IMG/VR virus record: IMGVR_UViG_3300023314_000002
Coordinates: 1 to 53,485 of that record
Reading direction: 5' to 3' (one strand)
Length of the DNA: 53,485 bases
From: a virus
Lineage: Duplodnaviria; Caudoviricetes
Shown: positions 128 through 51,895 of the stretch, piece after piece
Position numbering within the stretch: the stretch's first letter is position 1
Layout: each line of letters opens with the position of its first letter
Translations under genes and position numbers: made by a program
The notes under the pieces: generated by a model
Seen by the model: only the letters and a program-made list of their open reading frames with translations
What the model was told of the DNA's origin: nothing
Databases searched by the model: none

Positions 128-1015
128 AGGCTGCTCCTTTGTTTCTGTTTCCAAAGTTGCAAGAGCCGTTTTGCTGTTTGCTTTTAATGCAAATTCTGCC
201 ATTGCTTTAGCAGTTAACTCATTGCCGCTTTCAATAGCTGCCTTTACGCCAACCGGATCAATATCCAAGAAAACCATACAAGCCTCAACACGATCTTTTT
301 CTTTGTTGATACCAGATGTCATACCCTCTTTGTGCGCTTGCGCGTACACGTCAGGATGCTTTGCTTTTAATTCTTCTAATGTCATTTTATCTGTTTTAAT
401 TTCTTCTTGTTGTGCGCCTTTATATTCAGCTGCCATTTCCATAACTACCAAACTTTCGAACTCTTTTATTTCTGCTTTTTTAGTAGGTGTGATTTTATTT
501 ACTTTAGAAATAAGACCTATTTTTTTTGCAACATCTGCACTAAAAAAAACATCTTCGCGACGTTCCATTGAAAAAACATCTTTCAATTTGAATCCTGTTA
601 ATTCTTCAAAGAGAGGAACATCTACTTTATTCTTAAATGCTGTCATTAATGAAGCATTTACACGATCTAAGTTGCCACGAATAGCATCTGTAAAGTACTT
701 CGGATCGTTCTCAAAATATTCAGGATAAGCAGCACGATGTAAAAGAAATTCAGAAACATCATAAGCCTCTACTTCGTCTGCATAACATAAAAAAAACAAG
801 CCTGCGGAAAATGCTTTTCCATCAACTTGTACTCTTTTTTTGCCTGTATATTCTTTGTATTTTGCGACCATTCCAAATGCATATTCTGGATTTCCGCCTG
901 GTGTATTTACTCTTACTAATAAATCTTCATTGTTAGCTGTCTTTTCATCAAGTTCACTAATAAATTCGGCTGCACCGAAACTATCAATTGAACCATATAA
1001 AAGTAAATCTGCCAT
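29..1015 (-). CDS. Prohead protease, ClpP/S14 family, with C-terminal scaffold-like region
   Basis: VRVNTPGG, DGKAFSAG and LLHRA motifs; lies between portal and decoration/capsid; ATG at 1015 preferred over TTG at 1027. Confidence 0.88.
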   Translation of the reverse strand: MADLLLYGSIDSFGAAEFISELDEKTANNEDLLVRVNTPGGNPEYAFGMVAKYKEYTGKKRVQVDGKAFSAGLFFLCYADEVEAYDVSEFLLHRAAYPEYFENDPKYFTDAIRGNLDRVNASLMTAFKNKVDVPLFEELTGFKLKDVFSMERREDVFFSADVAKKIGLISKVNKITPTKKAEIKEFESLVVMEMAAEYKGAQQEEIKTDKMTLEELKAKHPDVYAQAHKEGMTSGINKEKDRVEACMVFLDIDPVGVKAAIESGNELTAKAMAEFALKANSKTALATLETETKEQPVVDTKEVPNTEKAAEAKTVEDFMAEVKKHSLS

Positions 1016-1098
1016 TATTGGAAGCAAATATGGACGTAAATTTCACTTACTTAAAATAATGTTGGTCTTTTCTTGGTTTTTTTGTTATGTTTGTAGAA
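1014..1098. promoter_or_regulatory. 85-bp direct repeat copy 1, probable bidirectional promoter
   Basis: 83/85 identical to 14408..14492; TATGTTTG (Bacteroidota -7 motif) on +, CATATTTG on - just before the protease ATG. Confidence 0.8.
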
Positions 1099-1108
1099 AT
1101 TATCCGAT

Positions 1109-1309
1109 ATGCCAATAAAAACAGATGGAATATTCATTACGAATGTGCCTGTAATTGCAAAACAAAAATTATTTTACATAGCAAAACAAAAGAATGGCAT
1201 CACAGTTTCGGGACTGTTAAAAAATATAATTTGCTCGAAAATTATCAAAGAATATGAAGAAAAATATGGTACTATTTCTGAACAACAGTTGGCAGAATCT
1301 CCGGAATAA
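1109..1309 (+). CDS. Small ribbon-helix-helix-like DNA-binding protein
   Basis: 66 aa; pattern IFITNVP..KQKLFYIAKQKNGITVSGLLKNII resembles Arc/CopG; directly downstream of the + strand promoter motif; overlaps the portal 3' end. Confidence 0.55.
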   Translation: MPIKTDGIFITNVPVIAKQKLFYIAKQKNGITVSGLLKNIICSKIIKEYEEKYGTISEQQLAESPE

Positions 1310-9526: not shown

Positions 9527-10044
9527 TACAGTAAATAGTTTAATTCTTGTTCTAAATAAAATTCTTCAATCGTTAATCCACTTGATTGTTTGCCTGCAAA
9601 ACTCACTTTTCCTGCCTGCCAAATATATTGATATTGACGTTCCTGTAAGTTACTCGGTTCTACTAACTTTACATTAATAATTAATGTGTCTGTTGCAGGA
9701 ATAGACGTAGTAACCGTTACCTCTGCAAAGTCTTGCATAAATTGCAAATCTTTTTTTATTTCATTTTCAATTAGCAAACGACCTGCACTTGTTAAAGGTA
9801 TTTCATCGAGTGCTTTCTCGGTTAAGCTGTTAAATTGTACGCTTGGATCGTTTAAAAAAAAGAGTGTGTTTCCGAACCAATCAAAAACCTGTTCTGTAGG
9901 CAGGCGTTCGCGCGTAACCGCTTCTTTATTTCCCCCAAACATTGCGAGATAAACCATGTTCTCAAATGAATATACTAAAGCTAAATCATTGCCGTTTTTT
10001 GCAATATCACCACCATTTCCTGTTTCATTTATTAGTAAATCCAT
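9526..10044 (-). CDS. Baseplate protein, Mu gp46-like
   Basis: NGNDL, VYLAMFGG, WFGN and IKKDLQFM motifs; position after tape measure. Confidence 0.72.
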   Translation of the reverse strand: MDLLINETGNGGDIAKNGNDLALVYSFENMVYLAMFGGNKEAVTRERLPTEQVFDWFGNTLFFLNDPSVQFNSLTEKALDEIPLTSAGRLLIENEIKKDLQFMQDFAEVTVTTSIPATDTLIINVKLVEPSNLQERQYQYIWQAGKVSFAGKQSSGLTIEEFYLEQELNYLL

Positions 10045-11900
10045 TAGAATGCAAGTGTTGATGTATTTTTAGGCAATAATGCCCCCATACCATCACCTGT
10101 CACGGCAACGCCTGTCGGCATGTTTTTAAAATCAAACGTCACATTCTTATTTTGATTGTTTGTTTGTACCGCATTTACCATGCCTTGCTGCGCTGCTGCC
10201 TTTGAATTAAGCAACGGCTTAACGCCATAAATATTAGTCGGAATATTTCCTACGCCCTCTCCGTCACTTGTTCCTAAATTGTACCGCGCTTGATTTAATC
10301 CTGTTGAAAGACCTTTAAAAAATTTACCACCCAAAAGAGTAGGCAAATGAGATAGCATTTCAAATACTCTTTGCAAAGGACTCAAAATTGCATCTAAAAT
10401 AACAACACCAATTGCTTTAACGCCACCTATTATTCCATCATTTTTAAAGCCATCAGAAACCATTTTCCAATTATCTTTAACAGAACGTATAAGCGATATT
10501 ATCGCACCCAATGGAGGCACAATAAACCACAAAGCGGTTGTTGCAATTGCACCCCATTCATTCCATTTGCTCACAAGTATTCCCGTTAGGATAATTAATC
10601 CACTAATAGCAACAGCTATTAATCCAATTGGAGAAACGATTATAGCAAAACTTGCAGCTAATCCTGTAACGATAGAAATAACACCTGTTATTGCAGATAC
10701 AGCAAGCAAGAAGCTACCTAAAGCAGCAGCAGCTTTAATTATTCCGCTAAATAGCTTTGGATTTGTTTTTGTCCAGGCAATAAATGACTTAACCAAAGGC
10801 TCTACTTTTGTGGCTATTTTTTCAATAATAGGCAACAGAACTTCACCTACTTTTATAGCCAAATTTTGAGCTTGGTTTTTCATAGCCTCCCATCTTTTTG
10901 CTAAAGTTTGTGACTTTATTTGTGCCTGCAAAGTTGCTTCAGATGTGCCTGTTACACCTTTTGTGTATTCTTTAAACAAATCAATATTTCCTAATAAAAT
11001 CTTTCCTGTTGAAATATTTTCAGCTCCAAATAACTTTAATATAGCAGCATCTTTTTCTTTTGCTGTTCTTAATTTGTCAATACGATTTTTGCTTTCTAAA
11101 AGCGCATCATTTATAGCAAATTGTCCACTCTTATAGCCAACACCTGCCTGTTGTAATTTCAATAAAGAACCTCTTAATTTTGTTCCGGCTTCAGCACCAA
11201 ATAATGAATATTTACTAAGTACTTGTACTGCTCCAACAGCCTGCTCAACGCTTAAATTAGCACCTGCAGCAACAGATCCAAAATTTACCATAGCATCAGC
11301 AGTCTGTGCAATTGATGCAGCACCAACTTTTGCACCTGCTGCCAATACATTTATCGTTCGTCCTGACTCGCTTGCACCTAAACTAAATTGATTCATCATT
11401 CCTGTTAAAGAACGAATTGAACTTTCTAAATCTTCACCACTTGCTTTTGACAAAGTGATTGCTGCAGAACTCACCTGACCTAAAGCAGCAGCACTATTTA
11501 ATAGCTCCGGAATAGCAGAACCTGCCAACTCAAATGCCTTAGCCGTTTCTCCATAAGCCATTTTCTGTGCATCTGCAACTTCTTCAACTTTTGATTTAAA
11601 CTTGGTTAACTCACCACCTGTTGCACCTGTAATTGCAGACAAAGAAGCTATAGATGTTTCGTAATCCATAGCTGACTTGACAGCATATGCCAATGGTGCA
11701 ACGATAGCAGCACCTGCGATACCTGTTGCTACAGATACTTGCTTTGTAACATCAGAAATACCACGCATCGACCTCTGAAGTCTTGCAATATTTGCTTCAC
11801 TCGCACTTGTAAACGACTTTACATTTTTACCCATACCATCCAACACCGAACTAAATTTGTCGATAGCTGTGAAAATAGTGGGTACTTTTAAAGTCGTCAT
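10044..11900 (-). CDS. Tail tape measure protein (TP901-like core)
   Basis: 618 aa, Ala/Gly-rich helical; AIDKFS N-terminus, GAEAGTKLR motif, hydrophobic segments. Confidence 0.95.
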   Translation of the reverse strand: MTTLKVPTIFTAIDKFSSVLDGMGKNVKSFTSASEANIARLQRSMRGISDVTKQVSVATGIAGAAIVAPLAYAVKSAMDYETSIASLSAITGATGGELTKFKSKVEEVADAQKMAYGETAKAFELAGSAIPELLNSAAALGQVSSAAITLSKASGEDLESSIRSLTGMMNQFSLGASESGRTINVLAAGAKVGAASIAQTADAMVNFGSVAAGANLSVEQAVGAVQVLSKYSLFGAEAGTKLRGSLLKLQQAGVGYKSGQFAINDALLESKNRIDKLRTAKEKDAAILKLFGAENISTGKILLGNIDLFKEYTKGVTGTSEATLQAQIKSQTLAKRWEAMKNQAQNLAIKVGEVLLPIIEKIATKVEPLVKSFIAWTKTNPKLFSGIIKAAAALGSFLLAVSAITGVISIVTGLAASFAIIVSPIGLIAVAISGLIILTGILVSKWNEWGAIATTALWFIVPPLGAIISLIRSVKDNWKMVSDGFKNDGIIGGVKAIGVVILDAILSPLQRVFEMLSHLPTLLGGKFFKGLSTGLNQARYNLGTSDGEGVGNIPTNIYGVKPLLNSKAAAQQGMVNAVQTNNQNKNVTFDFKNMPTGVAVTGDGMGALLPKNTSTLAF

Positions 11901-12465
11901 TTAGTCAATTCTTTGTTTACTTTTACTGCATCTTCATACCAATAGTCTAATCCGTAATAATCAATATCGTCTAAAAAAAAAGTATCAATTACCTTAGGCG
12001 GAAATTGATACATTCTTACTACTGATTTTATTGTATTGTTTAAATTGTCAATATGTATAATATTTCCATCGGTTAGATAAAAAAAATTGCGATAGCCTGT
12101 CCAACTGCATAATCTTCTGAGTCCAATACGCCAATTGTAGCACTTGGAAATCCTGTCAACGCACTAATATAGGCACTAATCATACCACCTAAATTGTCAG
12201 ACTTAACACCGTTTAATTTAGAATGAATTTCCTTAATTGGAATACGCGGCTTATATTTCAATTCCATCGTTTGTTCATCGCCATCAATCGGAAATTTCAA
12301 TTTTTGAGTGAAAGTAAAATCACTATTCAATATCAAATCGCCATCACAAACAGCATTTATAAGAGCCTCAATGCTATCTTTTTTATCAATACGCTTACGC
12401 TCGTTTATCTTCTTATAAGATAACCATTTTTCTACTTCTACTTTTGCTACTTCTACTGCAATCAT
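11897..12465 (-). CDS. Tail assembly chaperone, long form via predicted -1 programmed frameshift (about 189 aa)
   Basis: T8 run at 12079..12086; the -1 frame is open (YLTDGNII..YWYEDAVKVNKELTK) to a TGA overlapping the tape-measure ATG. Confidence 0.75.
12073..12465 (-). CDS. Tail assembly chaperone, short form
   Basis: Between tube and tape measure; ends ISALTG..LDSEDY..FFI like P2 gpE / Mu gp41. Confidence 0.85.
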   Translation of the reverse strand: MIAVEVAKVEVEKWLSYKKINERKRIDKKDSIEALINAVCDGDLILNSDFTFTQKLKFPIDGDEQTMELKYKPRIPIKEIHSKLNGVKSDNLGGMISAYISALTGFPSATIGVLDSEDYAVGQAIAIFFI

Positions 12466-12878
12466 TATCCTGATATTTTTTTAAGTTTTCCGCCACCACT
12501 TACTTTTAAAGTAAAAGTTGCAGCGTTTCCATTTCCTTGCATATCGCCAACAGGTGCGCCTTTGCCACCATAAACAGTACCGTTAATTGACGTGAATGTC
12601 CAATCTGCTTCTACCGGATCGCCTGCTAAAGCTGTCATTTTTTCCAAATCAGTTCTTGTGTTAGCATCCCAGGCAACCGTTACCTCAAAAGACCAACGTG
12701 CGTTATTCATTTGACGAATATTGTCACCACTTCCGGCAACCATATTAGCATCATCGTTTCCGCGAAATCCGCCTAAGTCATAAGTAGAATCTTCCGCAGA
12801 TTTAGGCAAAAAACGACCTGAACCCAAAGTTGCATGATTGTAAGTTACCTCTAAAATATCTCCGCCTATTGATGCCAT
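12465..12878 (-). CDS. Tail tube protein
   Basis: 137 aa, beta-rich, directly after the sheath gene. Confidence 0.85.
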   Translation of the reverse strand: MASIGGDILEVTYNHATLGSGRFLPKSAEDSTYDLGGFRGNDDANMVAGSGDNIRQMNNARWSFEVTVAWDANTRTDLEKMTALAGDPVEADWTFTSINGTVYGGKGAPVGDMQGNGNAATFTLKVSGGGKLKKISG

Positions 12879-12885
12879 TTATGTA

Positions 12886-14400
12886 TTAGTTTAAAGTTCC
12901 GAAATTAAATCCTGCTTCCGCAGTTGTTGAAGAAATGCGGTCAAATCCGCTTCTTTTATATCTAAAGAATGTTTCTAAACGGTCGGGATTCGTTGTGCTT
13001 AAATTTACTGTTGTTGATGCCTGTGAAAAATCGGAATCTACAATTAATGCGCGCTGAACCAACTCCAGGAACATATTAAATATTACCTGTTTCCATTGCT
13101 TTGGCTTAACCACTTTATCAACTGATACAATATCTGTATCGCGAGCAATCGCATGGTCAACAACGTTAATTTGTTCTAATAAATAGTAAGTATATCTTAC
13201 ATTAAAATCAAGAACAAGATTACGACAATATCTAAATTGTGGCGGATTTTCACCAATTGGATGATAAGTAGTTACAAAGTCTTCTACTTGATAAAAACCT
13301 GCTGACAAACTAACCGTTGAACATCCTTTTTTTACAAAAGCATCACGGTTTTCATAAATATTCATCGCACCAATATTAATAGGCGTTGGCATGTCAGGAT
13401 ATTTCCTGCCAGCAACATCTAAATGCGGTGTATCTTGGTTTACTCTTGCAAATAAAACAGCCATGTTAGCTGCTGCTTCAAAATGATAGCCTTTGCTTAA
13501 TGGTGCAGGACAAATAGCAATTGTTACTTGTTCTTTTCTTGCATCAGTTACGGTTGCTTCTTCTTCCAAAACAGAACCTGTCAACGCAATAAAAGGCTTC
13601 ATAACAATTCCGCGATAACGTCCTGTTGGATTATCTTGGTCTGGTCTTCCGTTGAAACTTTCTAAAGTTTGCATAACAGCAGACTGAACACCATAACCGT
13701 TAACAACTATTGTTATCCATTCGTTTCCAAATTGATCTAAAGCTGATTGAACGCTTGGTGTTCCTGCACCACTTTGTGTGCTTCCAATAGTATATGTAAT
13801 ACCTAAATCGTCAGTAGCTGTATCAACAGAAACATTAGTTCCGTCAGCCGTTAAGCCTTTCCATTTAGTAGTAAGAATAGCTTTGTAAGAATCATCTGTA
13901 GCAATTACAGGTGATGCTAAAGTATTATTTACTGCATCGTAAATCTTAGCAGTAATTTCAGATGTTGAGTCGCCAATTTCTAAATTAATATCGTAAAAAT
14001 TACCATCTACACCATCTCTTCCACTTATGAAAACTCGGTGTGTTCCATTTTTTGTAACTACACCTGTTGGTGTAATTGTCAAAACTTTTGCCGTTGCTCC
14101 ATCTGGTGTTATCTGAGGATAAATAACAACAGGAATGCCTCCAACTCCATCACTTGACACAGGCAAAACAATACGTGACATCAAATGAATAGGAGAACCA
14201 TAACCATATAAATCACCTGCTTGTTTAGAAGTAGTAATTTGTTTGCCTGTAATGTCTAAATTCGTTTGATTTGCTGTATTTGCTTCGCCAATGATTGCGA
14301 TTTTTTGCGGTAGATTTGGTGAAACTTCTCTAAAGTCGCCTTTAGTTATCTTGTAGCCAACGACTCTTGAAATTAATTCTGTACCTACTGCAAAGCTCAT
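12886..14400 (-). CDS. Tail sheath protein, Mu gpL-like
   Basis: PQKIAIIG, YGYGSPIHLM, LTTKWKG, VTTYHP and NPDRL motifs; ATG at 14400 preferred. Confidence 0.92.
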   Translation of the reverse strand: MSFAVGTELISRVVGYKITKGDFREVSPNLPQKIAIIGEANTANQTNLDITGKQITTSKQAGDLYGYGSPIHLMSRIVLPVSSDGVGGIPVVIYPQITPDGATAKVLTITPTGVVTKNGTHRVFISGRDGVDGNFYDINLEIGDSTSEITAKIYDAVNNTLASPVIATDDSYKAILTTKWKGLTADGTNVSVDTATDDLGITYTIGSTQSGAGTPSVQSALDQFGNEWITIVVNGYGVQSAVMQTLESFNGRPDQDNPTGRYRGIVMKPFIALTGSVLEEEATVTDARKEQVTIAICPAPLSKGYHFEAAANMAVLFARVNQDTPHLDVAGRKYPDMPTPINIGAMNIYENRDAFVKKGCSTVSLSAGFYQVEDFVTTYHPIGENPPQFRYCRNLVLDFNVRYTYYLLEQINVVDHAIARDTDIVSVDKVVKPKQWKQVIFNMFLELVQRALIVDSDFSQASTTVNLSTTNPDRLETFFRYKRSGFDRISSTTAEAGFNFGTLN

Positions 14401-14407
14401 AATGGAT

Positions 14408-14492
14408 ATTATTGGAAGCAAATATGAAAGTAAATTTCACTTACTTAAAATAATGTTGGTCTTTTCTTGGTTTTTTTGTTATGTTTGTAGAA
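14408..14492. promoter_or_regulatory. 85-bp direct repeat copy 2, probable bidirectional promoter
   Basis: 83/85 identical to 1014..1098; sits between the divergent sheath gene and glycosyltransferase operon. Confidence 0.8.
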
Positions 14493-15139
14493 TGAAAATA
14501 GGCGTTATAATTCCCGATCGTGGTGATAGACCAGAATTTATGAAGAATTGCTTACGAATGTTAGCATCACAAACAATTAAACCTGCCATAATTGAAGTAA
14601 TTAACGACCTACCTTTAAGCGAGGAAAAGGATATTACTTTACGTTATCGAATTGGTTACGAAAAATTAAGAAACAAAGGAATAGATGTAATAGCTTTAAT
14701 TGAAAATGATGATTGGTATGCACCTGAATATCTTGAAGTAATGTATAATAAATGGTTAGAGCTTGGGAAACCTGAATTGCTTGGTCAATCATATACTATT
14801 TACTACCATATAAAAGAACGTGCTTTTTTTACAATGAACCACCCTGAACGTTCAAGCGCAATGAATACTTTTATTAAACCTGACTTAAATTTTAGTTGGT
14901 GTGTTGATAACGATCCGTACACAGATTTACATTTATGGTTACGGAGTGGATTAAAAGGTGAAATATTTACACCAAAATCGCATATTTGTTTAGGAATTAA
15001 ACATGGTACAGGTCTTTGCGGTGGTGTAAACCATGTTGATGATATGCACCGATTTACAAATAGAGATTCAAATATGACTTTTTTAAATCAAGTTATGGAT
15101 TCGCAAAGTTTTAATTTTTACTCAAAATACTTTAAATGA
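14492..15139 (+). CDS. Glycosyltransferase, GT-A fold (GT2-like)
   Basis: IGVIIPDRGDR start and IENDDWY motif; true start probably ATG 14492, since the upstream extension is the repeat. Confidence 0.8.
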   Translation: MKIGVIIPDRGDRPEFMKNCLRMLASQTIKPAIIEVINDLPLSEEKDITLRYRIGYEKLRNKGIDVIALIENDDWYAPEYLEVMYNKWLELGKPELLGQSYTIYYHIKERAFFTMNHPERSSAMNTFIKPDLNFSWCVDNDPYTDLHLWLRSGLKGEIFTPKSHICLGIKHGTGLCGGVNHVDDMHRFTNRDSNMTFLNQVMDSQSFNFYSKYFK

Positions 15140-15834
15140 AAATATCACTAATACACCCATCGCGCGGACGTGCTGAAAAAGCAAAAGCCACTTATGATAA
15201 TTGGATGCAAAAAGCATCTGGTGAAATCGAGATTGAATACATATTATCATTAGATTTAGATGATAATTATGATGAATACAAGAGAGTATTTGGTGAACAT
15301 TATAATTGTGTTTTAGCTTTTAATAAAAATTTAGTTGAAGCTGCAAACGTTGGTGTTTCCTATTCACATGGAGATTTAATAATTTTAATTTCAGATGACT
15401 TTGAATGTTTTGATTTATGGGATGCGACCTTAAAAAACTTTTTAGTAGGCAAAAAAGATTTCGTTCTAAAAACTTTTGATGGTATTCAAGATTGGATAGT
15501 AACACTACCGATAATGGATAGAGTTTACTACAAAAAACAAGGCTACTTATACTATCCTGAATATCATCACATGTTCTGCGATACAGACCTTACACATAAA
15601 TCGGAGTTGCAAGGAAAATTAATTATCAGAAATGATTTACTGTTTAAGCATAATCATTACTCTGTTGGCGGTTGCAAAAAAGATGCTATAAATATTAAAG
15701 CAGATGCTACTTGCGCAAAAGGTGAATCATTATATTTACAACGTGTGAAAAATAATTTTGGTTTAACTGAAAATACCTGTTCATTAAGCGATAACGCAAA
15801 TTCACATATTAATTGGTTAAAAAATAAACTATGA
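15136..15834 (+). CDS. Glycosyltransferase, GT2-like
   Basis: ISLIHPSRGR, ISDDF and FCDTD motifs. Confidence 0.82.
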   Translation: MKISLIHPSRGRAEKAKATYDNWMQKASGEIEIEYILSLDLDDNYDEYKRVFGEHYNCVLAFNKNLVEAANVGVSYSHGDLIILISDDFECFDLWDATLKNFLVGKKDFVLKTFDGIQDWIVTLPIMDRVYYKKQGYLYYPEYHHMFCDTDLTHKSELQGKLIIRNDLLFKHNHYSVGGCKKDAINIKADATCAKGESLYLQRVKNNFGLTENTCSLSDNANSHINWLKNKL

Positions 15835-16403
15835 AATTATCTATTTTAATACTGACTATTGAAAAAAGGAAACATTTTTTGAATGATTTACTAAATCAAC
15901 TTACTGAACAAGCAAAAGACGAATTAAACAATACAGTTGAAATTATTATAAATAGTGATGAAAACCTAAGTATCGGTTGTAAAAGAAACAATCTTTTGGA
16001 AAGCGCAAAAGGAGAATATCTTTGTTTTTTTGATGACGATGATTTACCAAGCAAAGATTATATTAGCACACTATTAGAAGCCATTAAATCTAATCCTGAC
16101 TGCGTATCTTTGCGTGGAATAATGACAACAAATGGCTCAAATCCTGAAATATTTGAACATTCGATTAGATATAGCGAATATAAAACAAATGAAAATGCAA
16201 TTTATCCTGAAGTTAAATACGAAAGATTCCCGAATCATATTTCTTGTTTAAAATCAAGTATAGCAAAGTTATTCAAATTCCCAGAATGCAATCATGGAGA
16301 AGATACAGATTTTGCTACGCAGATTTATAAATTAGGATTGCTTAAAAATGAATATTATACCGACAAAATTCTCTACTACTATAAATACGTAACCAATAAA
16401 TGA
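15831..16403 (+). CDS. Glycosyltransferase family 2
   Basis: LSILILT, KRN..L..AKGEYLCFFDDDD and GEDTDF motifs. Confidence 0.9.
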   Translation: MKLSILILTIEKRKHFLNDLLNQLTEQAKDELNNTVEIIINSDENLSIGCKRNNLLESAKGEYLCFFDDDDLPSKDYISTLLEAIKSNPDCVSLRGIMTTNGSNPEIFEHSIRYSEYKTNENAIYPEVKYERFPNHISCLKSSIAKLFKFPECNHGEDTDFATQIYKLGLLKNEYYTDKILYYYKYVTNK

Positions 16404-17101
16404 AATTACAACTACCAACGGTAACACTTGTTTGCATTGATTGCGTTAATTCAGAACGCGCTAAAGATGTTTTGGAAATTTGCAAAAGCAAAGTTGATTT
16501 TGGTGACGTAAAATTACTTACAAGCCAAGCTATTTACTATAAGCATAGTGTAGAAATTCAACCATTAGAATCTTTGGTAATGTATTCTGTTTTTTGCCTT
16601 ACTGAATTATACAAATACATAAACACAACTCATTTGTTAATAGTACAACGTGACGGATTTATACTTAATCCGCAATCGTTTAGAATAGAATGGTTGGATT
16701 TAGATTATATTGCACCGTTATTTATTCAGTACGATAAAGTTGGTAGCGGTGGTTTTTCATTGCGTTCTAAACGCTTAATGGAATATTCAGCACACGTTTT
16801 ACCAAAGTGGGACGGCACTTTAGAACACGCAGAATACTTACAAGTTGGATTAGCCTATTATGAAGATGGTGTGCTGTGTTTTGATAAGAAGTTTAATCAC
16901 TTTAATTTTGCAACAAAAGAACAAGCGTGTGGCTTTGCGCAAGGTGGCAATCGTAATCCTGAATATTTTTGCGAACTGCCGTTTGGCTTCCACAGAACGT
17001 GGCAACAAATAGATTTTGAAACAGGCAAAGTAGATAGTAGCGATTTAAGTAAAGACTTAACACAAAGTTACGATAGTGAAATTGAAAAATTAATACAATG
17101 A
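16400..17101 (+). CDS. DUF5672-family putative glycosyltransferase
   Basis: LIVQRDGF, DYIAP, VGSGGFSLRSK, ED and PFGFH motifs. Confidence 0.8.
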   Translation: MKLQLPTVTLVCIDCVNSERAKDVLEICKSKVDFGDVKLLTSQAIYYKHSVEIQPLESLVMYSVFCLTELYKYINTTHLLIVQRDGFILNPQSFRIEWLDLDYIAPLFIQYDKVGSGGFSLRSKRLMEYSAHVLPKWDGTLEHAEYLQVGLAYYEDGVLCFDKKFNHFNFATKEQACGFAQGGNRNPEYFCELPFGFHRTWQQIDFETGKVDSSDLSKDLTQSYDSEIEKLIQ

Positions 17102-17946
17102 TATATTTAGAAAAAAATGACATTCATGCAACGATTTGTACATGGATTTATTGTCACTTTTGGCAAATGTGGAGTGCAGAAAAACAAGGTAAAAGTTGTT
17201 ATATAAATTGGCACGGTGGCGAAAATAATCACCTAATAGATTTAAATGACAGCCAAAAGTTTGCGGAAATACCAAATATGTATGACTGGTATTTTGTGCA
17301 ACCAAATAAAAAAGAAACAGCTACTGAAATTTGGACTTGGGAGCATTGGCAAGATACTTCACCTGTACCATTTATGGCGCAACCATTATCAGTAATTAAA
17401 GACTATTATAAAAAGAATCTTATTTTTAACGATATTGTAAATAAAAGAGGACAGGAATTAGTAGAGAAATACGGAATAGATTTTAGTAAAATAATCGGTA
17501 TTTCATGGCGTGGAACTGATAATGTAACAGATGGTAGGATAACAATGCCTATTGAAAAATACTATAAGTATATTGATATGGCTTTAGAGCAAATTCCTGA
17601 TGCAAGAATTATGTGTACTGCTGAAGAAACAGAAGTATTGCAACCGTTATTAGATAAATATCCACAGGCATTTAATATAGATGAGTTTATTAGTTCACCA
17701 AAAGGAAGTTTGCAAAATCCTGAAAGAAATTCAAACGTATCTGGTTTTGAGCGTGGTATGCAACCGGTACTTATGGTTTGGTTATTTTCTAAATGTGCAT
17801 GGTATATAAAAAATCGCAGTTCAACAGGTGCGGTTGCAAGTTGGCTAAGTGATGGACAAATAGTGTGTTTGGCACACGCAGAAACATTGAACTATGATAA
17901 ATTAGATAACGAAGTTGAAATTAACGGTAAAAGATTTCCTTTATGA
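17098..17946 (+). CDS. Fucosyltransferase-like GT-B enzyme (NodZ/GT23-like)
   Basis: WYFVQP, IGISWRGTD (cf. GVHxRxTD) and LFSKC....RSS motifs. Confidence 0.7.
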   Translation: MIYLEKNDIHATICTWIYCHFWQMWSAEKQGKSCYINWHGGENNHLIDLNDSQKFAEIPNMYDWYFVQPNKKETATEIWTWEHWQDTSPVPFMAQPLSVIKDYYKKNLIFNDIVNKRGQELVEKYGIDFSKIIGISWRGTDNVTDGRITMPIEKYYKYIDMALEQIPDARIMCTAEETEVLQPLLDKYPQAFNIDEFISSPKGSLQNPERNSNVSGFERGMQPVLMVWLFSKCAWYIKNRSSTGAVASWLSDGQIVCLAHAETLNYDKLDNEVEINGKRFPL

Positions 17947-18506
17947 CATTACAAGAAATATATGAAGATTTAAAAACAAAAGGTTTTGAAACTGACAAAG
18001 GCTCGGTTCACAGCTATATACCCGTTTATGAAGAAATACTTGCACCATATAGAAATACTGCTAAATTCGTGCTTGAAATAGGTGTTTTTAAAGGAAATTC
18101 GTTAAGAATGTGGGAAAAATACTTTAATTGTCCTGTTTTTGGTGTGGATTGCGATGAAACTCCACACGATGGAATGGCGGATTTGCGTGAAATGATAGCA
18201 AGTGGTGAGCATTTAATTAAGATTTTTGATGCATCAAATGAAAATGAAGTAAAAGAAAATTTAGGAAACATAAAATTTGATGTAATCATAGAGGATGCAA
18301 ACCACCAACTATCACAACAATTAGAATTATATCGCATTTATAAAGAGTATTTAACTCCAAATGGCATATATATTATTGAAGATGTAGAGGATATTGACGA
18401 AAACAGAGGCGTTTTTAAGAATATAGATAGCGAAAAAACAGTAACAATTTTAGATAGAAGAAATATCAAAGACAGGTTCGATGATGTATTAATAATTATA
18501 AAATAA
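17943..18506 (+). CDS. Class I SAM-dependent methyltransferase, sugar O-methyltransferase-like
   Basis: TDKGSVHSY, VLEIGV, FDVIIEDANH and GIYIIEDV motifs. Confidence 0.85.
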   Translation: MTLQEIYEDLKTKGFETDKGSVHSYIPVYEEILAPYRNTAKFVLEIGVFKGNSLRMWEKYFNCPVFGVDCDETPHDGMADLREMIASGEHLIKIFDASNENEVKENLGNIKFDVIIEDANHQLSQQLELYRIYKEYLTPNGIYIIEDVEDIDENRGVFKNIDSEKTVTILDRRNIKDRFDDVLIIIK

Positions 18507-18511
18507 ATAGC

Positions 18512-19096
18512 ATGTACTCACAAAATCAAGAAGAAAATTACATAACAGAATACTTTTCAGGTCGCACCGGAAAATTTATAGATATTGGTGCTTATGATGT
18601 GTTCAGACTGTCAAATACACGTAAACTTTTTGAGTTAGGTTGGCGTGGAATTTTGGTCGAACCGGACCCAACAAACTATAAATCTATTTCAGATTTTTAT
18701 AAAGACGAACCAAGAATCGAAGTTTTAAATTTTGCAGTTGGAAACTCAAATGAAGATTTGGAATTTCTGTCAAGTGGTGGTGATGCTGTTTCTACTTCGG
18801 TTGTTGAACATGCAGAAAAATGGAAAGGTGCTGGTGTGAAATTTGAAAAGGTAATAGTAAAACAAATGCACGTTGCAGAATTATTAGAATTACATAAAGA
18901 TGCTATTTTTCTAAGTATTGATACAGAATCAACCAACATGCTTGTATTTAATTCTATTCCAGACAACGTATTTGAACAAATAGAAATGTTATGTATAGAA
19001 CACGACAATTGTATTGTTGAAATTGTAAGCAAATTAGAACCTTTTGGATTAAAAACAAAATACCTGAATGCAGAGAATATAATTTTAGCAAAATGA
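18512..19096 (+). CDS. FkbM-family methyltransferase
   Basis: YSQNQEE, FIDIGAYD...SNT, GILVEP and FLSIDTE motifs. Confidence 0.9.
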   Translation: MYSQNQEENYITEYFSGRTGKFIDIGAYDVFRLSNTRKLFELGWRGILVEPDPTNYKSISDFYKDEPRIEVLNFAVGNSNEDLEFLSSGGDAVSTSVVEHAEKWKGAGVKFEKVIVKQMHVAELLELHKDAIFLSIDTESTNMLVFNSIPDNVFEQIEMLCIEHDNCIVEIVSKLEPFGLKTKYLNAENIILAK

Positions 19097-19836
19097 AAAT
19101 TTGCGGAATTTACAATGCATTTGATTCAATAGAATTATTAAAAGGCTCTATGGAATGCCTTAAAAATGATGTAGATTTATTTATAATTATCTATCAAACT
19201 GAATCTAACTATGGTGAAAAATACAACCCTTTGGATGATTTCGATTTTACGAAATATACAAACACAATATGTCACCTTTACACACCAATTAGAGAACGTG
19301 GCGGAGCTTGGAATGAAACAAGAAAAAGGAATATAGGATTAGACATCGCACGTGAACACGGCTGCACACACTTCTTGCACCTTGATTGTGACGAATATTA
19401 CCAAAACTTTGCTGAAGCAAAACAAAAATTCATTGACAGCAAAGCAAAAGGCTCTGTTTGCAAAATACTAACCTACTTTAAAAAGCCAACACTTCGTTTG
19501 GAAAGTCCTGACAATTATTATGTTCCGTTTATTCACAAACTTTACACAAATACAAATTCAGGCTATCAAAATCAAATTATATTTCCATTTTATGCAGATC
19601 CAACACGACTAATTAATGAAGAAAATGTTGTTTTGCTTGACGTTTTCATGCATCATTTTAGTTGGATTAGAAACGACATAGAAAGAAAGGTGCGAAATTC
19701 AAGCGCAAAATCAAACATTGAAAGAAGTAATTTACTTGAAGATTACTATTCTGAAGAAACAAAAGCCGGAACATTCTTAGTTGATTATAACCAAAAACTG
19801 ATTGAAGTAGAAAACATATTCAACTTTAATTTCTGA
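19093..19836 (+). CDS. Glycosyltransferase, GT-A fold
   Basis: KRNIGL, HFLHLDCDEYY (DxD) and MHHFSWIR motifs. Confidence 0.78.
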   Translation: MKICGIYNAFDSIELLKGSMECLKNDVDLFIIIYQTESNYGEKYNPLDDFDFTKYTNTICHLYTPIRERGGAWNETRKRNIGLDIAREHGCTHFLHLDCDEYYQNFAEAKQKFIDSKAKGSVCKILTYFKKPTLRLESPDNYYVPFIHKLYTNTNSGYQNQIIFPFYADPTRLINEENVVLLDVFMHHFSWIRNDIERKVRNSSAKSNIERSNLLEDYYSEETKAGTFLVDYNQKLIEVENIFNFNF

Positions 19837-20104
19837 TTAAAGACAAAGACTCTACCAACGTATCTACATCTCGTTTAGAGGTAATTATATAATTACCTCT
19901 TGAGTCTTTTTGCAACCCTAAGCTTTCAACCCGAATTTCTATTGGAAGGCTATAAACAACTATAGCTCCGTTTATTATCTTCAGAATATCTTCACATTTT
20001 TTGTGATGATAAAAGATACAAGGATCACTTTCACTACCATAGTTAGACTCATCAAAACCAAAATTATCTAAATAATCTCTTAATTCATTTGTTATATTTT
20101 TCAT
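19826..20104 (-). CDS. Hypothetical protein
   Basis: 92-aa ORF after terL, convergent with the glycosyltransferase operon. Confidence 0.6.
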   Translation of the reverse strand: MKNITNELRDYLDNFGFDESNYGSESDPCIFYHHKKCEDILKIINGAIVVYSLPIEIRVESLGLQKDSRGNYIITSKRDVDTLVESLSLIRN

Positions 20105-20128
20105 GTATTTTTTTTACAATATAAATAA

Positions 20129-22105
20129 TTAAAGTCTACCCAACATGGCATCACAAAAATTCTGCCATGTTCCATTTGTATATTTCAACTCTTTTAATAC
20201 ACGCGCTACAATTATATCTTTCACAACACCTGCATACAAACGGCAATCATACAAGTGATTCTGCACGTTATCATTTTTCTTTACCCATCTAAAATAAGTT
20301 TCTTTATCATAAACTTTATGTTCGGCTTCGAAATGTGAAAAATAATTATTGAATGTATATAAGCCCCGAGACGGAATAGGAAAATTCATAAAACCTGCAG
20401 GTTGCTTCATGTTCATAGTATCATTCCATCTCAAAGAAATCTTTTCCGATAACCATTGCTTAGTTAAATTAGTTTCCACCATATACAAATTTGGCTTTTC
20501 CAAAGATTGCTTAAACGATTTCGCATCGCGCTGATTCATTGTAAATTTATCTGTATCTTTTCCTTTCAATCCAACAATTGTAAAATCTTTAGAATCTATA
20601 AATTGGTAGCCAAAATCTTTTAAGTAGCCACAATCTACGCCTGCAGTAAATACTGGCATAAAACGACCATCATCGGTCGGAATAGAAGTATTTATTATCT
20701 TATCTAACTCATCCCAAACGCTGCGCTGCATCCCGTGTTGATATGTCCACCGTTCACGGTCAATACCGTTCTGTCCCTCGCGTGGTACAAAAGTTCCAAT
20801 AGATCCATGACTAATTGAATAACTCGGTCCGGCTTCCGACCATCCTACAATCTCATAATCTAAACGTGCGTCATCTAATTTGCCATTCATATCACAGCCT
20901 AAAGTAACTATAACAATAGGACCGTTACCATCATTTTCGCTCATTTGGTTTGGCACAATGCCTACTTCATAATCGCGGATATTCTTTTGTAATTCTGTTG
21001 ATGATAATTCCTCTGCTGGCGGATCGTAAGTTTCACCAAGCACCACATTTACAAAAGTTTTATACAAATCTTCTTTGCGTGGCTGTCCTACCGGATGCGC
21101 TTCAATCCAATCATTCACATAATGTTCCCAACCATACATTCCGATTGGTGCATACAAAGAAGAAATGTGATAGGAATAATAACCTGGTTTGCTTGGTTCG
21201 GCAGTTGCTACCCATTGCCCTAAATTTAACAACTCATTTTTGTTTTTATCATCAAAAAACTCGCCACATTCCTGACACACATAACCTACTGAATCATGAA
21301 TTACCTTTCCTTTTTCGTCTAATTTCCATGTGATGCCGCCTGTAATTTCACCTTTCGTAATGGTCCAACACCATTCTATAAACTCACCACAACAAGGACA
21401 TGGTATCATATATTTGCGCTGGTCCCCTAACAGGTAAGCCTCTTCAATATTAGAACCATCAGCAAGCTCAGGCGTTGAACAATAGCATATTTTGTGAGAA
21501 TCTTCATATGCGGCAAACCTTTGTTCTAATAATTTTCGCGTACTACCGGACTCTTTTGATTTAGATTTTACACTTTCAAAATCATCAAACAATCCATACT
21601 TCAAAGAAACGTCACGAATATCTTTGTGATTATTTGCGCTGCCAATGTGAATATAACCGCCTGAAAATTCCTTTTTTGTATTAGTATCACCGGACTTTTG
21701 CGCTCGTTTACGCAACACCTGTGGCTTTATATATGGTCGTAAGCCAGCATTATCAATACCAATATCTAATTTCTCTGTAGCTTTTTCAATTAAATCAGGT
21801 GAGCCTACCAAAAAGTAAGCATTTGATGGATCATTTTTTATCATCCAAAGCAAAGTCGGAATTAAAACACCTGCAGACAAACCAATCTGCGCACCTTTCA
21901 TAATCGCTAACCACTTCATAGGATTATCTGTTGCAAATCGATCTATAATCTCACGGCAATAAGGCGTGCGTAAATAACTGAACGGACCGGGAAAAGGCTT
22001 ACCCATCACAACATTTTGCATTACCCATTCACTCGGTTTAATATCCGAAATGGAAACATTGCTGCTCTCAATTAAATCAACTAACTGATTTGAATATTCT
22101 ATCAT
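20129..22105 (-). CDS. terL: Terminase large subunit, lambda gpA family
   Basis: MKGAQIGLS Walker A, FDDFE Walker B, STP, GDQRKY.IPCPCC, YVCQEC and NHLYDC motifs. Confidence 0.96.
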   Translation of the reverse strand: MIEYSNQLVDLIESSNVSISDIKPSEWVMQNVVMGKPFPGPFSYLRTPYCREIIDRFATDNPMKWLAIMKGAQIGLSAGVLIPTLLWMIKNDPSNAYFLVGSPDLIEKATEKLDIGIDNAGLRPYIKPQVLRKRAQKSGDTNTKKEFSGGYIHIGSANNHKDIRDVSLKYGLFDDFESVKSKSKESGSTRKLLEQRFAAYEDSHKICYCSTPELADGSNIEEAYLLGDQRKYMIPCPCCGEFIEWCWTITKGEITGGITWKLDEKGKVIHDSVGYVCQECGEFFDDKNKNELLNLGQWVATAEPSKPGYYSYHISSLYAPIGMYGWEHYVNDWIEAHPVGQPRKEDLYKTFVNVVLGETYDPPAEELSSTELQKNIRDYEVGIVPNQMSENDGNGPIVIVTLGCDMNGKLDDARLDYEIVGWSEAGPSYSISHGSIGTFVPREGQNGIDRERWTYQHGMQRSVWDELDKIINTSIPTDDGRFMPVFTAGVDCGYLKDFGYQFIDSKDFTIVGLKGKDTDKFTMNQRDAKSFKQSLEKPNLYMVETNLTKQWLSEKISLRWNDTMNMKQPAGFMNFPIPSRGLYTFNNYFSHFEAEHKVYDKETYFRWVKKNDNVQNHLYDCRLYAGVVKDIIVARVLKELKYTNGTWQNFCDAMLGRL

Positions 22106-22731
22106 AAACGTTCTCCAACTCCTTTTTTCTCAACGTGTGTTTGAATAATTGATTCAATAGATTTTGATGTTGCAAAGATCGCTTTTGCTATCGCGCCATT
22201 GGTCGCCTTAATTAATTCTCCTTTACAATAGGCAATATCTTCTACAGAAAATGAATGCTTTTTGCTCATTATCCTCACAATTTCATCAGCTGCATTCTTA
22301 AATTCAGTTAAAATAGATTGGTTGTGCTGCAAAATAACTGGCTTAATTAGCTCTACCGGAACAACTTCACCTTTCTTTTTCTGTATTTCTATTTGTAGTT
22401 TTTCAATTTCACGACCACGCTTTACCGTGTCAAGATGCTTTAATAATGTTGTAGATTTGTGTAGATTTGGAACGCCTGAGTTGTCTTCCGGTTCTATTTC
22501 TCGATTAATTGGTTCTGTTTTTTCAACTAAAGATTCATTAATTTCTTCTATTTCGTCCTTTGGTGGCAAAAAACAAACCTCTCTCTTTTCCAAAAATAGT
22601 TTATTAGTCACATCATCACTATCAATGAATCCTGAAATGACAACAACTTTATTTCTTTGAATATAAACAGATAACTCTTTGGTTTTCAACTTACAAATAT
22701 CTGCAAATTCCTTTTTAGAATATAATGCCAT
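22102..22731 (-). CDS. terS: Terminase small subunit, Nu1-like
   Basis: N-terminal wHTH-like SKKEFA..C, coiled coil ending KKGEVVPV; overlaps the terL start; ATG 22731 preferred. Confidence 0.8.
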   Translation of the reverse strand: MALYSKKEFADICKLKTKELSVYIQRNKVVVISGFIDSDDVTNKLFLEKREVCFLPPKDEIEEINESLVEKTEPINREIEPEDNSGVPNLHKSTTLLKHLDTVKRGREIEKLQIEIQKKKGEVVPVELIKPVILQHNQSILTEFKNAADEIVRIMSKKHSFSVEDIAYCKGELIKATNGAIAKAIFATSKSIESIIQTHVEKKGVGERL

Positions 22732-22747
22732 AGTCAAATTTACAAAA

Positions 22748-22779
22748 TTGTTGTCAAATAAGTTCCAACTTGACAACAA
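22748..22779. repeat. 10-bp inverted repeat upstream of terS
   Basis: TTGTTGTCAA-N12-TTGACAACAA. Confidence 0.8.
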
Positions 22780-22866
22780 AAGTTCAAATATAGTCACACA
22801 TGCTTTTTATTGCGGTGTTTCATACATTGCGTGGAACGTATATTTTGTTTCACAGTACCTTGACAT

Positions 22867-22897
22867 TTAACATTGGCTTAACATTGACTTAACATTG
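22867..22897. repeat. Three TTAACATTG copies with 11-bp period
   Basis: Copies at 22867, 22878 and 22889. Confidence 0.85.
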
Positions 22898-23146
22898 ATG
22901 TGTACTCTCCTGCTGCTTTAAAGCTTTATCCATCTCATGAAAACATAAGCACACGCACACCACGTTAACATAAATACATTTGAGCTTATAATAATAGCAA
23001 CAATGTTTATTATTACAATTGAAATTACAACTAATATTGTTTGATTATTATAGCTCATAATTTCTAAATTTTACTTACCAACCAACACGCAAAAGCAATT
23101 AGTATAGCGTATATAGTCATTAATATTGTTTTTAATTGGTACTTTT

Positions 23147-37331: not shown

Positions 37332-37823
37332 TTATTGTGATGCGAAAAGATTATATTCAGCCTTTCGTCTATTAATTAATCCATTTAATTTCTTTCCTTT
37401 TGATGTTATTGCAGTAGAAATAAATTTAGCTTCTAAATTAGGTTTATTTTCATTTACATAGCTCCATAATTCGTATGGTTTCCACTTCAAGTTTTTATCA
37501 TTATATCCACCACCTGTATTGAAAGCAAAAGATACCATGGCTGAATATTCATTATCTGTTAGTTCTCGCTTAATCAGACGTTTTGCAACAGATTCAGCAT
37601 TCTTTAAGTCCTCTAAAAGCAACTCATTGGCTTTTTCTTCAGATATTACTGTGTTCCATTTTATCCATTTTCCGGTGCTTCCATAACCTATGGAAATAGT
37701 ACCTAATATTTTCGTTGTGGCTGTTAGTATAACTTTCGGTTGAAAGTCATCATATGCACGCAAAAAAAGCTTTTCATAGCCTTTTATTAAATCGATTCCT
37801 TTTTGATTTAGTTTCATACCCAT
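37332..37823 (-). CDS. Endolysin, GH24 phage lysozyme
   Basis: GIDLIKGYE..L.AY.D, IGYG, A.VSFAFN.G and GLINRRKAE motifs. Confidence 0.92.
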   Translation of the reverse strand: MGMKLNQKGIDLIKGYEKLFLRAYDDFQPKVILTATTKILGTISIGYGSTGKWIKWNTVISEEKANELLLEDLKNAESVAKRLIKRELTDNEYSAMVSFAFNTGGGYNDKNLKWKPYELWSYVNENKPNLEAKFISTAITSKGKKLNGLINRRKAEYNLFASQ

Positions 37824-37870: not shown

Positions 37871-38692
37871 TTATGCTCGAATTGCTTCATAAATTGTTTT
37901 CTTTCCGGAAATTACATCTTCTAAACTTTTGTCTGGAATATCAGCAAAATCAACTTCACAAATAATGCTACAACTTGGCATTATTTCTTTTGTCATTCTT
38001 CCAGCTTTAGGATTTAATTCATCTAAGAAAGTTCCATTAATACAACTATATCCTACTTTTCGTTCAATTTCAGCCATTCTTTTAAATACAAAAGGAAAGT
38101 CAATCCGTATTTTGTTCCAATAACCTTTTCCTCCTTTTACACAACCTATACAGTTGTTGTTATTGTAACCAAGTTTATACATTTCTGGAAGTTCAATCCC
38201 AGCATTTAAAAGCAATCCAGCACATTGATTCTTATTTATACCTTTTTCTATTAATGGAAATAACGGATTTGTATAAGAATATTGCTGACCATGTCTGATT
38301 GCTCTGTTTATTTCTTTTTTCTCAAATTCAAACCCCCAAACCTGATTGTTAATTACATTCTCATTAAAAAGAGATAATCCATGCAATGCCTCTAATTCAT
38401 ATCTAACTTCTTTCTTTAAAATACGTGTACATGGTGCGCCTTGTGGTGTATTTACTGCGCCTGTTTTTTCAATTACATCAAATTGGTCATTTGCTTCTTT
38501 GCTTTTTATCAATTTAATTTTCTTGCCATACCAATTTTCACAATCAGATTTAAACCTTTCGTTGTCTGAATGTGCTGTGTCAATTCCAATATAATATAAT
38601 TCTACATTTTCATACATTTCTAACGCCATTTTACATGCAACAGCAGAAGTAACTCCAGCAGACCACCAAGCAACAATAAACCCATCTTTCAT
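37871..38692 (-). CDS. PP-loop / PAPS-reductase-like adenine nucleotide alpha-hydrolase
   Basis: WWSAGVTSAVA, PCTRILKK, FPLIE, MYKLGY.NNNCIGCVKGG.GYW and terminal C...C motifs. Confidence 0.8.
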   Translation of the reverse strand: MKDGFIVAWWSAGVTSAVACKMALEMYENVELYYIGIDTAHSDNERFKSDCENWYGKKIKLIKSKEANDQFDVIEKTGAVNTPQGAPCTRILKKEVRYELEALHGLSLFNENVINNQVWGFEFEKKEINRAIRHGQQYSYTNPLFPLIEKGINKNQCAGLLLNAGIELPEMYKLGYNNNNCIGCVKGGKGYWNKIRIDFPFVFKRMAEIERKVGYSCINGTFLDELNPKAGRMTKEIMPSCSIICEVDFADIPDKSLEDVISGKKTIYEAIRA

Positions 38693-44976: not shown

Positions 44977-45066
44977 TTTGAGTTTTGTTTAAAGATTTAA
45001 AAAAGGGTAACGATATACTTTAGTGTACCTGTTTTATTTTTAGCTAAACGCTAAAACAAAACGAGT

Positions 45067-48466: not shown

Positions 48467-48528
48467 GTGTTTGTAATTGATACACAAATATAAGTATAAT
48501 TATTGGTACATGCAAGTATATCGTTACC

Positions 48529-51712: not shown

Positions 51713-51895
51713 CTATTTTTTCTTAGGTATTTTTCTATCTTCTTTTTCGACTTCATCAAATGGCTTCAAAAAGCCTTGACGAACCAATGCATCAATATTC
51801 TCTTTTGGAAAATTTCCGTCGGTTACAATGTCGCCAGAATTATAGATTTTATTTCCTAATCCACCTACACTCAACGCTATTACAATGAACTTCAT
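51713..51895 (-). CDS. Small post-capsid protein
   Basis: Y.SGD.V...L..QGFL pattern; ATG overlaps the capsid stop. Confidence 0.6.
   Translation of the reverse strand: MKFIVIALSVGGLGNKIYNSGDIVTDGNFPKENIDALVRQGFLKPFDEVEKEDRKIPKKK

Follow-up and report, generated by a model that had tools for sequence, protein, structure and literature searches.

An eight-gene glycan island at the terminase-sheath junction of a Bacteroidota-type myovirus and its possible role in virion glycosylation

The gtrABC, Oac and Wzy modules of temperate phages change glycans, need polytopic membrane proteins and adjoin integrases. The bacterial glycosylation islands for flagellin, pilin and serine-rich adhesins, as well as O-antigen loci, have variable content between conserved flanks and lie beside genes of self-assembling surface polymers; they encode nonulosonic-acid synthase, AsnB-like amidotransferase and acetyl- or methyltransferases, and both flagellin and serine-rich adhesins are glycosylated in the cytoplasm. 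Glycans have also been reported on the capsid and tail-tube of mycobacteriophages (PMC12619734), and those of chlorovirus capsids are described as products of viral glycosyl-, fucosyl- and methyltransferases (PMC7019647). Phage glycosyltransferases (GTs) are very common in metagenomes, and for about 65% of roughly 25,000 GT-bearing phage contigs, Pyle et al. (bioRxiv 10.1101/2023.12.21.572611) report no base-modification enzyme nearby. Here we describe an island of eight open reading frames (ORFs), g1 to g8, located between the tail sheath and large terminase genes of the window, i.e., the whole stretch of DNA analysed, which is a complete virus record (IMGVR_UViG_3300023314_000002, 53,485 bases) with a 127-nucleotide (nt) terminal repeat. 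Quite possibly, the island encodes enzymes that work in the cytoplasm and attach a methyl-capped glycan to virion proteins of the phage itself, a reading which is the best supported of those considered and which we put forward as tentative.

Almost all genes of the window lie on the minus strand, and the island (14492-19836, plus strand) is the sole long plus-strand run. Beyond the sheath gene are the tube and tape measure genes, and beyond the large terminase gene is a small-terminase-like gene. An initial annotation, made before any database search, had described eight tightly coupled plus-strand genes, placed between terminase and tail sheath and occupying about 10% of the genome. All of this was borne out, as six of the seven junctions within g1-g8 are 4-base overlaps (a 5-base gap separates g6 and g7) and the island covers 5345 of the 53485 bases. 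The longest frame of g1 opens at 14402, and the methionine at 14492 is the start in 8/8 aligned homologues, in agreement with the initial annotation. Megablast of window positions 12000-23000 against cultured phages gave no match. The order of the minus-strand modules is unusual, namely small and large terminase, island, sheath, tube, tape measure, baseplate, portal, protease, decoration, capsid and head-closure; in the nearest cultured relatives, FCL-2-like phages of Flavobacterium whose sheath is 50% identical, the portal, capsid and sheath genes follow one another as usual. The capsid gene spans 51895-52944, the decoration gene 52944-53390, and a 588-aa protein counted among the virion proteins is encoded at 48529-50295.

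According to Pfam, PHROG and fold matches, the inventory proposed in the initial annotation, consisting of four GT-A glycosyltransferases, a DUF5672 protein, a fucosyltransferase-like GT-B enzyme and two methyltransferases, holds (Table 1). The GT-A fold is supported by a structure model for g1, by Pfam for g3, by the Atlas model only for g8, and by PHROG for g2, whose Pfam match is below the cut-off. Acidic motifs of the DxD type are present in all four (ENDD in g1, DDDD in g3, DCD in g8, and SDD, read from the sequence, in g2). The weakest family call is that of g1 (Pfam GT2 only at 0.012), which belongs to a family of 1393 clusters at E <= 0.001. The g1 model (predicted local distance difference test, pLDDT, 97.8) gave 98 Foldseek matches at E <= 0.001, GT-A enzymes among them; SpsA, RmlT and TarP were matched with E of about 3e-6 to 7e-5 and template modelling (TM) scores of 0.48-0.59, and heparosan synthase and WrtF were also among the neighbours. 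Among PDB sequences, only a marginal match (0.0016) to a Bacteroides glycosyltransferase was found for g1. The ENDD motif is invariant in 8 lineage homologues, and E71 and D73 are invariant in 72. Some relatives are longer and combine the g1 domain with GT2, GT1 or TOD1-like domains or with a sulfotransferase in one protein. For g8, there was no Pfam match and the PDB sequence search returned nothing useful; its Atlas model (predicted TM score 0.88) matches GT2 and GT17 clusters with TM 0.75-0.80, which gives a lead that g8 may be a GT-A-like enzyme. D100 of its DCD motif is invariant among homologues, and tblastn against cultured phages matched Lak megaphages only, at 29% identity.

The product of g5 had no Pfam match, no useful PDB sequence match and no tblastn match in cultured phages. 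Its model (pLDDT 92.6) adopts the NodZ/FUT8/POFUT fold with a best E of 5.8e-8; 44 PDB matches were obtained at E <= 0.001, and the 35 listed are all fucosyltransferases (NodZ, FUT8, POFUT1, POFUT2 and plant FUT1), with TM by query up to 0.67 and sequence identity of 8-15%. Among viral proteins, the fold is best matched by a giant-virus protein (4.5e-13) and by proteins of cyanophages that are named fucosyltransferase. A WRGTD motif is invariant in 33 homologues of g5 and resembles the HxRxxD motif of GDP-fucose enzymes, of which it may be a counterpart. No sequence link to any solved structure was detectable for g4, and the cluster look-up gave no informative names for relatives of g4 or g5. 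Since hhalign showed no detectable relation between the DUF5672 family and the g1 family (probability 0.3%), g4 is not called a glycosyltransferase here. S-adenosylmethionine (SAM) binding motifs were read from the sequences of the two methyltransferases, LEIGVFKGNS in g6 and IDIGAYD in g7, and given the context their substrate would be a sugar. In Kyte-Doolittle profiles with 19-residue windows no position in g1-g8 reaches 1.6 (maximum 1.05), which agrees with the claim that the proteins are without membrane segments. The claim that the locus has no nucleotide-sugar synthesis gene stands as well: no such family was found among the eight island proteins and 32 other scanned window proteins (of 75 further ORFs of at least 50 amino acids, aa).

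Table 1. Features of the island, its borders and the associated elements in the window
Feature	Position	Strand	Assignment and evidence
85-nt direct repeat, copy 1	1014-1098	.	between portal and head-protease genes
Tail sheath gene	12886-14400	-	left hotspot border; phrog_165, E 5e-81
85-nt direct repeat, copy 2	14408-14492	.	whole sheath/g1 intergenic region; 98% identity to copy 1
g1	14492-15139	+	GT-A glycosyltransferase; lineage-specific anchor, candidate priming enzyme
g2	15136-15834	+	GT2-like glycosyltransferase; Pfam GT2 0.0016 (below cut-off), phrog_14945 1e-14
g3	15831-16403	+	GT2 glycosyltransferase; Pfam 4.4e-10 (above cut-off), phrog_14775 2e-33; DDDD motif
g4	16400-17101	+	DUF5672 protein; PF18922 1.8e-12, 47.6 bits vs cut-off 24.4
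g5	17098-17946	+	NodZ/FUT8-like GT-B (fucosyltransferase-like) enzyme; structure model
g6	17943-18506	+	class I SAM methyltransferase; Methyltransf_24 3.6e-6, 28.3 bits vs cut-off 26.3; phrog_21658 1e-20
g7	18512-19096	+	FkbM-family methyltransferase; Pfam 8.8e-10 (above cut-off); phrog_8156
g8	19093-19836	+	GT-A-like glycosyltransferase (putative); second lineage-specific anchor; Atlas model
Perfect 10-bp hairpin	19877-19900	+	41 nt after g8; candidate terminator between convergent units
Large terminase gene	20129-22105	-	right hotspot border; phrog_15, E 7e-110
Tet_JBP dioxygenase gene	41909-42796	-	E 4e-15, 50.5 bits vs cut-off 34.9

The terminase-sheath junction is a swap-prone recombination hotspot. 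Eighteen relatives were fetched by their sheath, 14 of which have both terminase and sheath on the locus; the two genes are directly adjacent in 8/14 and separated by an island in 6/14. These eight relatives with terminase directly beside sheath also bear out the description of the block as inserted. When the sheath relatives were combined with 80 loci found through g1, which is carried by roughly 426 viral contigs, 41 distinct junctions were obtained, including 8 empty (90-243 bp) and 33 occupied ones (2.8-7.7 kb), the g1 sample being biased to occupied sites. The 33 islands contain 238 ORFs of at least 80 aa, which fall into 67 families with 42 singletons, as counted by crude ORF calling and clustering (first start codon, greedy overlap filter, single-linkage BLAST). 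The most constant members are g1 (31/33 islands) and g8 (28/33), both present in 6/6 islands of the unbiased sheath sample. A family with a hexapeptide acetyltransferase as representative and a weak GT2-like family are each found in 15/33 islands, followed by the g3 (13/33), g2 (12/33) and g7 (10/33) families, and the g4, g5 and g6 families occur in 3/33 each, namely the window and two close relatives only. Island variants encode AsnB-like amidotransferases, further GT2 and FkbM genes and a DUF4406 protein. In one such locus (L012, 7636-7923), a DUF4406 (nucleoside 2-deoxyribosyltransferase-like) gene lies between g1 and the sheath gene.

None of the 238 ORFs (0/238) has three or more hydrophobic segments, so flippase, polymerase and priming phosphoglycosyltransferase are lacking in these islands, and the statement that no flippase is encoded can be extended to all 33. 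The orientation is less constant. Of the 80 g1 loci, 51 are inverted relative to the flanks and 14 run in the direction of the flanking genes, while the remaining 15 lack both flanks within 8 kb; thus, the description of the block as inverted is correct for the window but not as a general property of the islands. In a sheath tree, island-bearing and empty-site relatives are placed mostly in separate, weakly supported groups, and comparison of this tree with island state linked no sheath feature to island presence. No description of an island of this kind was found in the literature searched.

Homologues of the interior genes also travel outside this lineage. At E <= 0.001, g5 has 450 relatives, the best 120 of which are at least 60% identical, and g4 has 380, the best 120 being at least 58% identical. 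Fifteen viral loci were found via g5, with g4 directly upstream of g5 in 15/15 and g6 downstream in 14/15. Thirteen of these 15 loci belong to other phage backbones, without homologues of sheath, terminase, g1 or g8 even by profile search; g1 and g8 profiles matched 0/13 of the other-backbone cassettes, where g2-g7 do occur. In L026 and L030 the cassette adjoins a terminase gene of a different family, and in L025 a portal gene. NeuB, STELLO-like transferases, a sialyltransferase-like protein, a pyruvyl transferase and homing endonucleases can also be part of such cassettes. In L026, NUMOD3 and GIY-YIG homing-endonuclease-like genes are situated within the glycan cassette (11412-13687) of an unrelated backbone. 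Genes g2-g7, above all the g4-g5-g6 trio, are therefore a portable block, and g1 and g8 are anchors specific to the lineage; since the anchors are confined to the lineage and g2-g7 appear on other backbones, the architecture is one of anchors around an exchangeable interior.

The gene set, folds and families, solubility, hotspot and anchor-plus-portable-core architecture are observed directly; which acceptor is used, which sugars are added in which order, and when this happens are inferred as follows. Host nucleotide sugars and SAM would be turned into a short methyl-capped oligosaccharide on one or more virion proteins, in the late phase, during particle making. The product of g1, probably together with that of g8, would recognise a lineage-specific acceptor and attach the first sugar or sugars; g2, g3 and possibly g4 would extend the chain, g5 would add a fucose-type sugar, and g6 and g7 would O-methylate the terminal sugars. 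The interior of the island is exchanged among phages at the recombination hotspot, and related virions would therefore carry differing glycans, a variation comparable to that of O-antigen or flagellin glycans among bacteria.

Several observations support virion proteins as the target. The six candidate transferases and two methyltransferases are all without a membrane segment, and the transferase genes lie within or beside structural genes, as the island sits in the virion and packaging module, with 14 of the 80 loci co-oriented between terminase and sheath. A close relative, G001, has only the terminase, island, tail, portal, protease, decoration, capsid and head-closure genes in common with the window, and none of the replication genes, i.e., the island is co-inherited with structural and not with replication genes. 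The absence of the anchors from other backbones, where g2-g7 are present, fits anchors that would read a lineage-specific acceptor. The lineage is also mostly non-temperate, with an integrase in only 3 of 18 lineage records and none in the window. Other results weigh against this proposal. Neither a Ser/Thr-rich tail nor another obvious acceptor feature was found in 13 virion proteins (capsid, decoration, tube, baseplate and others), and the eight empty-site relatives make like virions without the island. The complete 68-kb genome of G008 has only g2-g7 and one small protein in common with the window (g4 54%, g5 57% identical) and zero structural proteins, and therefore the core is independent of the window's virion proteins. 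By structure model, the g1 fold neighbours include RmlT and prophage TarP, which act on lipid- or polymer-linked wall glycans. Furthermore, according to PMC13326640 and bioRxiv 10.1101/2023.12.21.572611, a position on the terminase side would also fit late DNA modification.

That the island glycosylates DNA in the window phage is very unlikely. In such a pathway, the Tet_JBP enzyme would make 5-hydroxymethyl-uracil or -cytosine after replication and the transferases would add a chain before packaging, guarding the genome against restriction. The window does encode a Tet_JBP protein (labelled queuine tRNA-ribosyltransferase by PHROGs and recognised by a targeted search), and enzymes of this type supply the hydroxymethyl acceptor for DNA glycosylation (bioRxiv 10.1101/2023.12.21.572611; PMC13326640). 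Neither a C5 methyltransferase nor a thymidylate-synthase homologue was found in the window; following the logic of bioRxiv 10.1101/2023.12.21.572611, the lack of a C5 methyltransferase would point to a thymine-oxidising enzyme. The same source places phage GT-A and GT-B enzymes that act on DNA sometimes near terminase or structural genes, and Lee et al. (PMC13326640) describe group transfers to DNA as late events before packaging. However, the Tet_JBP gene lies 22 kb from the island, whereas according to Pyle et al. (bioRxiv 10.1101/2023.12.21.572611) the genes of such a pathway mostly lie together, and it has its own adjacent FkbM-like methyltransferase gene. The search that found the window copy detected Tet_JBP in 0/28 other records with an island or cassette, 8 of which have a completeness of at least 90%, and the thymidylate-synthase homologue PF00303 occurs in 0/23 other records. 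The transferases are thus neither clustered nor co-inherited with a base-hydroxylating enzyme, and the island family is independent of the known DNA-acceptor routes. Up to six transferases and two methylations also exceed the mono- to trisaccharides reported as known on DNA (Pyle et al., bioRxiv 10.1101/2023.12.21.572611). DNA is therefore weakened as a target, and a combination of Tet_JBP and island restricted to the window phage is possible. The Tet_JBP gene and the adjoining FkbM-like gene (together 41205-42796, minus strand) are possibly a thymine-oxidising DNA-modification pair.

Better placed, although still rather unlikely, is a role at the host envelope, in which the enzymes would act at the inner membrane face on host lipid-linked glycan intermediates (of protein O-glycan, lipopolysaccharide (LPS) O-antigen or capsule) and alter the surface of the infected cell, e.g., blocking superinfection or keeping progeny from sticking to debris. 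Soluble GT2-type enzymes can use lipid-linked acceptors, and the matches of the g1 model include the wall-teichoic-acid enzyme RmlT and prophage TarP. A core that moves between unrelated backbones fits a host-side acceptor common to many hosts, and the nearest cultured relatives by sheath (50% identity) infect Flavobacterium. AsnB-like amidotransferases, acetyltransferases, NeuB, sialyltransferase-like protein and pyruvyl transferase of the island variants correspond to decorations also of Bacteroidota surface glycans; for the Tannerella S-layer glycan, a 4-O-methyl, amidated sugar is described in PMC4030854. On the other hand, a membrane protein of the serotype-conversion type is missing from the 33 islands, and g1 and g8 track the phage backbone. 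Neither integrase nor resolvase was found in the window, and 15 of 18 lineage records are without integrase, so classical lysogenic conversion is not a general role and classical serotype conversion is unlikely. A pattern scan of 185,579 species genomes also found almost no close homologues of g1 and g5, with no match for g5 and three for g1; the latter are metagenome-assembled contigs, and at least two of them belong to phages of the window lineage. An acceptor of another kind (e.g., a small molecule, a glycolipid or a protein of the host cytoplasm), or selfish hotspot cargo without virion benefit, is quite unlikely. Half or more of the island families are unannotated, with 42/67 singletons and no Pfam match for 8/10 frequent families, homing endonucleases are found within some cassettes, and the site is often empty, all of which would suit these readings. 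They are opposed by the strong conservation (at least 60% identity for the best 120 relatives of g5 and at least 58% for those of g4) and by the g4-g5 order kept in 15/15 loci, and translational coupling together with intact frames in all relatives argues for a selected, expressed pathway.

Sequence elements around the island bear on the timing assumed for virion glycosylation. Copy 2 of the 85-nt direct repeat adjoins the start codons of sheath and g1, and copy 1 is likewise bordered by two start codons, one belonging to the head protease gene and one to a small ORF on the plus strand. G001 carries an unrelated 37-nt perfect repeat at the equivalent two sites (10020-10056 and 22912-22948); a repeat of its own at these two sites in each genome argues for a functional control element of late structural units. 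The 85-nt element is likely a late control element common to both units and possibly bidirectional. Co-regulation of the island with morphogenesis, as initially suggested, thus gains indirect support from the element common to the sheath/g1 and head-protease sites and from the parallel in G001. The sequence TATGTTTG ends four bases upstream of the g1 ATG, and we take it to fit the Bacteroidota -7 box TAnnTTTG; boxes like TAnnTTTG are also found upstream of the sheath gene in several relatives. A scan for sigma-70 promoters gave fewer sites than in shuffles.

Two small ORFs are located near these elements. One of 66 aa (1109-1309, plus strand) opens 11 nt beyond repeat copy 1, shares sequence with the 3' end of the portal gene and has no homologue in G001; from its sequence, it could encode a small DNA-binding regulator. 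The other, of 92 aa (19826-20104, minus strand), lies downstream of the terminase gene, with no family match and no G001 homologue, and may be no gene, because the hairpin at 19877-19900 lies inside it. Elsewhere in the window, 32-nt inverted repeats (44998-45029 and 48505-48536, 81% complementary) bracket two genes, encoding an IS1595-family transposase (47513-48487) and an 818-aa fusion of HsdR-N, N6 DNA methylase and type I specificity domains (45067-47523); the segment 44998-48536 looks like a cargo-carrying insertion element within the phage genome. In addition, a gene for a PAPS-reductase-like protein (37871-38692, minus strand; phrog_424, 7e-42; Pfam below cut-off) adjoins the endolysin gene (37332-37823).

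The locus is compact and well bounded, and its fixed site, empty-site relatives, two conserved anchors and portable six-gene core make it testable. It is possible, and we say so with caution, that Bacteroidota-type tailed phages carry a 'phage serotype locus', i.e., a hypervariable glycan island at the terminase-sheath junction with g1 and g8 as lineage-specific priming enzymes and interchangeable modules for elaboration, in which the DUF5672-fucosyltransferase-methyltransferase trio would be one module circulating among unrelated phages. If so, virions would wear a diversifying sugar coat, analogous to O-antigens and giant-virus capsid glycans; virion glycosylation would prove widespread among environmental phages instead of being a feature of a few actinobacteriophages, and a function would be at hand for many phage glycosyltransferase contigs without a DNA-modification enzyme nearby. 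Variable glycans on particles beyond actinobacteriophages would in that case matter for adsorption and stability, for recognition by grazers or immune systems, and for phage engineering. Should the target instead be the host envelope or DNA, the island would reveal a way of remodelling the surface that is new, or a DNA glycan of unusual complexity.

Compared with described systems, the island differs from gtrABC-type serotype conversion, as g1-g8 have no hydrophobic segment, the 33 islands no polytopic ORF and the window no integrase or resolvase. The bacterial glycosylation islands are cellular loci, and no priming enzyme of the Maf or GtfA/B type was identified in the phage island. The DNA sugar-hypermodification clusters of phages likewise contain GT-A and GT-B enzymes related to those of LPS and teichoic acid, act late and sometimes lie near terminase (bioRxiv 10.1101/2023.12.21.572611; PMC13326640); as described there, they are defined by a neighbouring 5-methylpyrimidine dioxygenase or thymidylate-synthase homologue, whereas the dioxygenase of the window is 22 kb off. 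Chloroviruses and giant viruses are similar in that soluble viral GT-A enzymes, a fucosyltransferase and sugar O-methyltransferases make a methyl-capped capsid glycan without the host secretory pathway (PMC7019647), but these are eukaryotic viruses with multi-domain enzymes and N-linked glycans, whose genes are scattered or form other types of clusters. The mycobacteriophage systems, as reported, belong to actinobacteriophage siphoviruses and comprise few genes, unlike the eight genes and hypervariable island of this Bacteroidota-type myovirus. As may be the case here, they employ phage glycosyltransferases, sometimes with a methyltransferase, which work in the cytoplasm on capsid or tail-tube subunits (PMC12619734, PMC13313380, PMC11256854).

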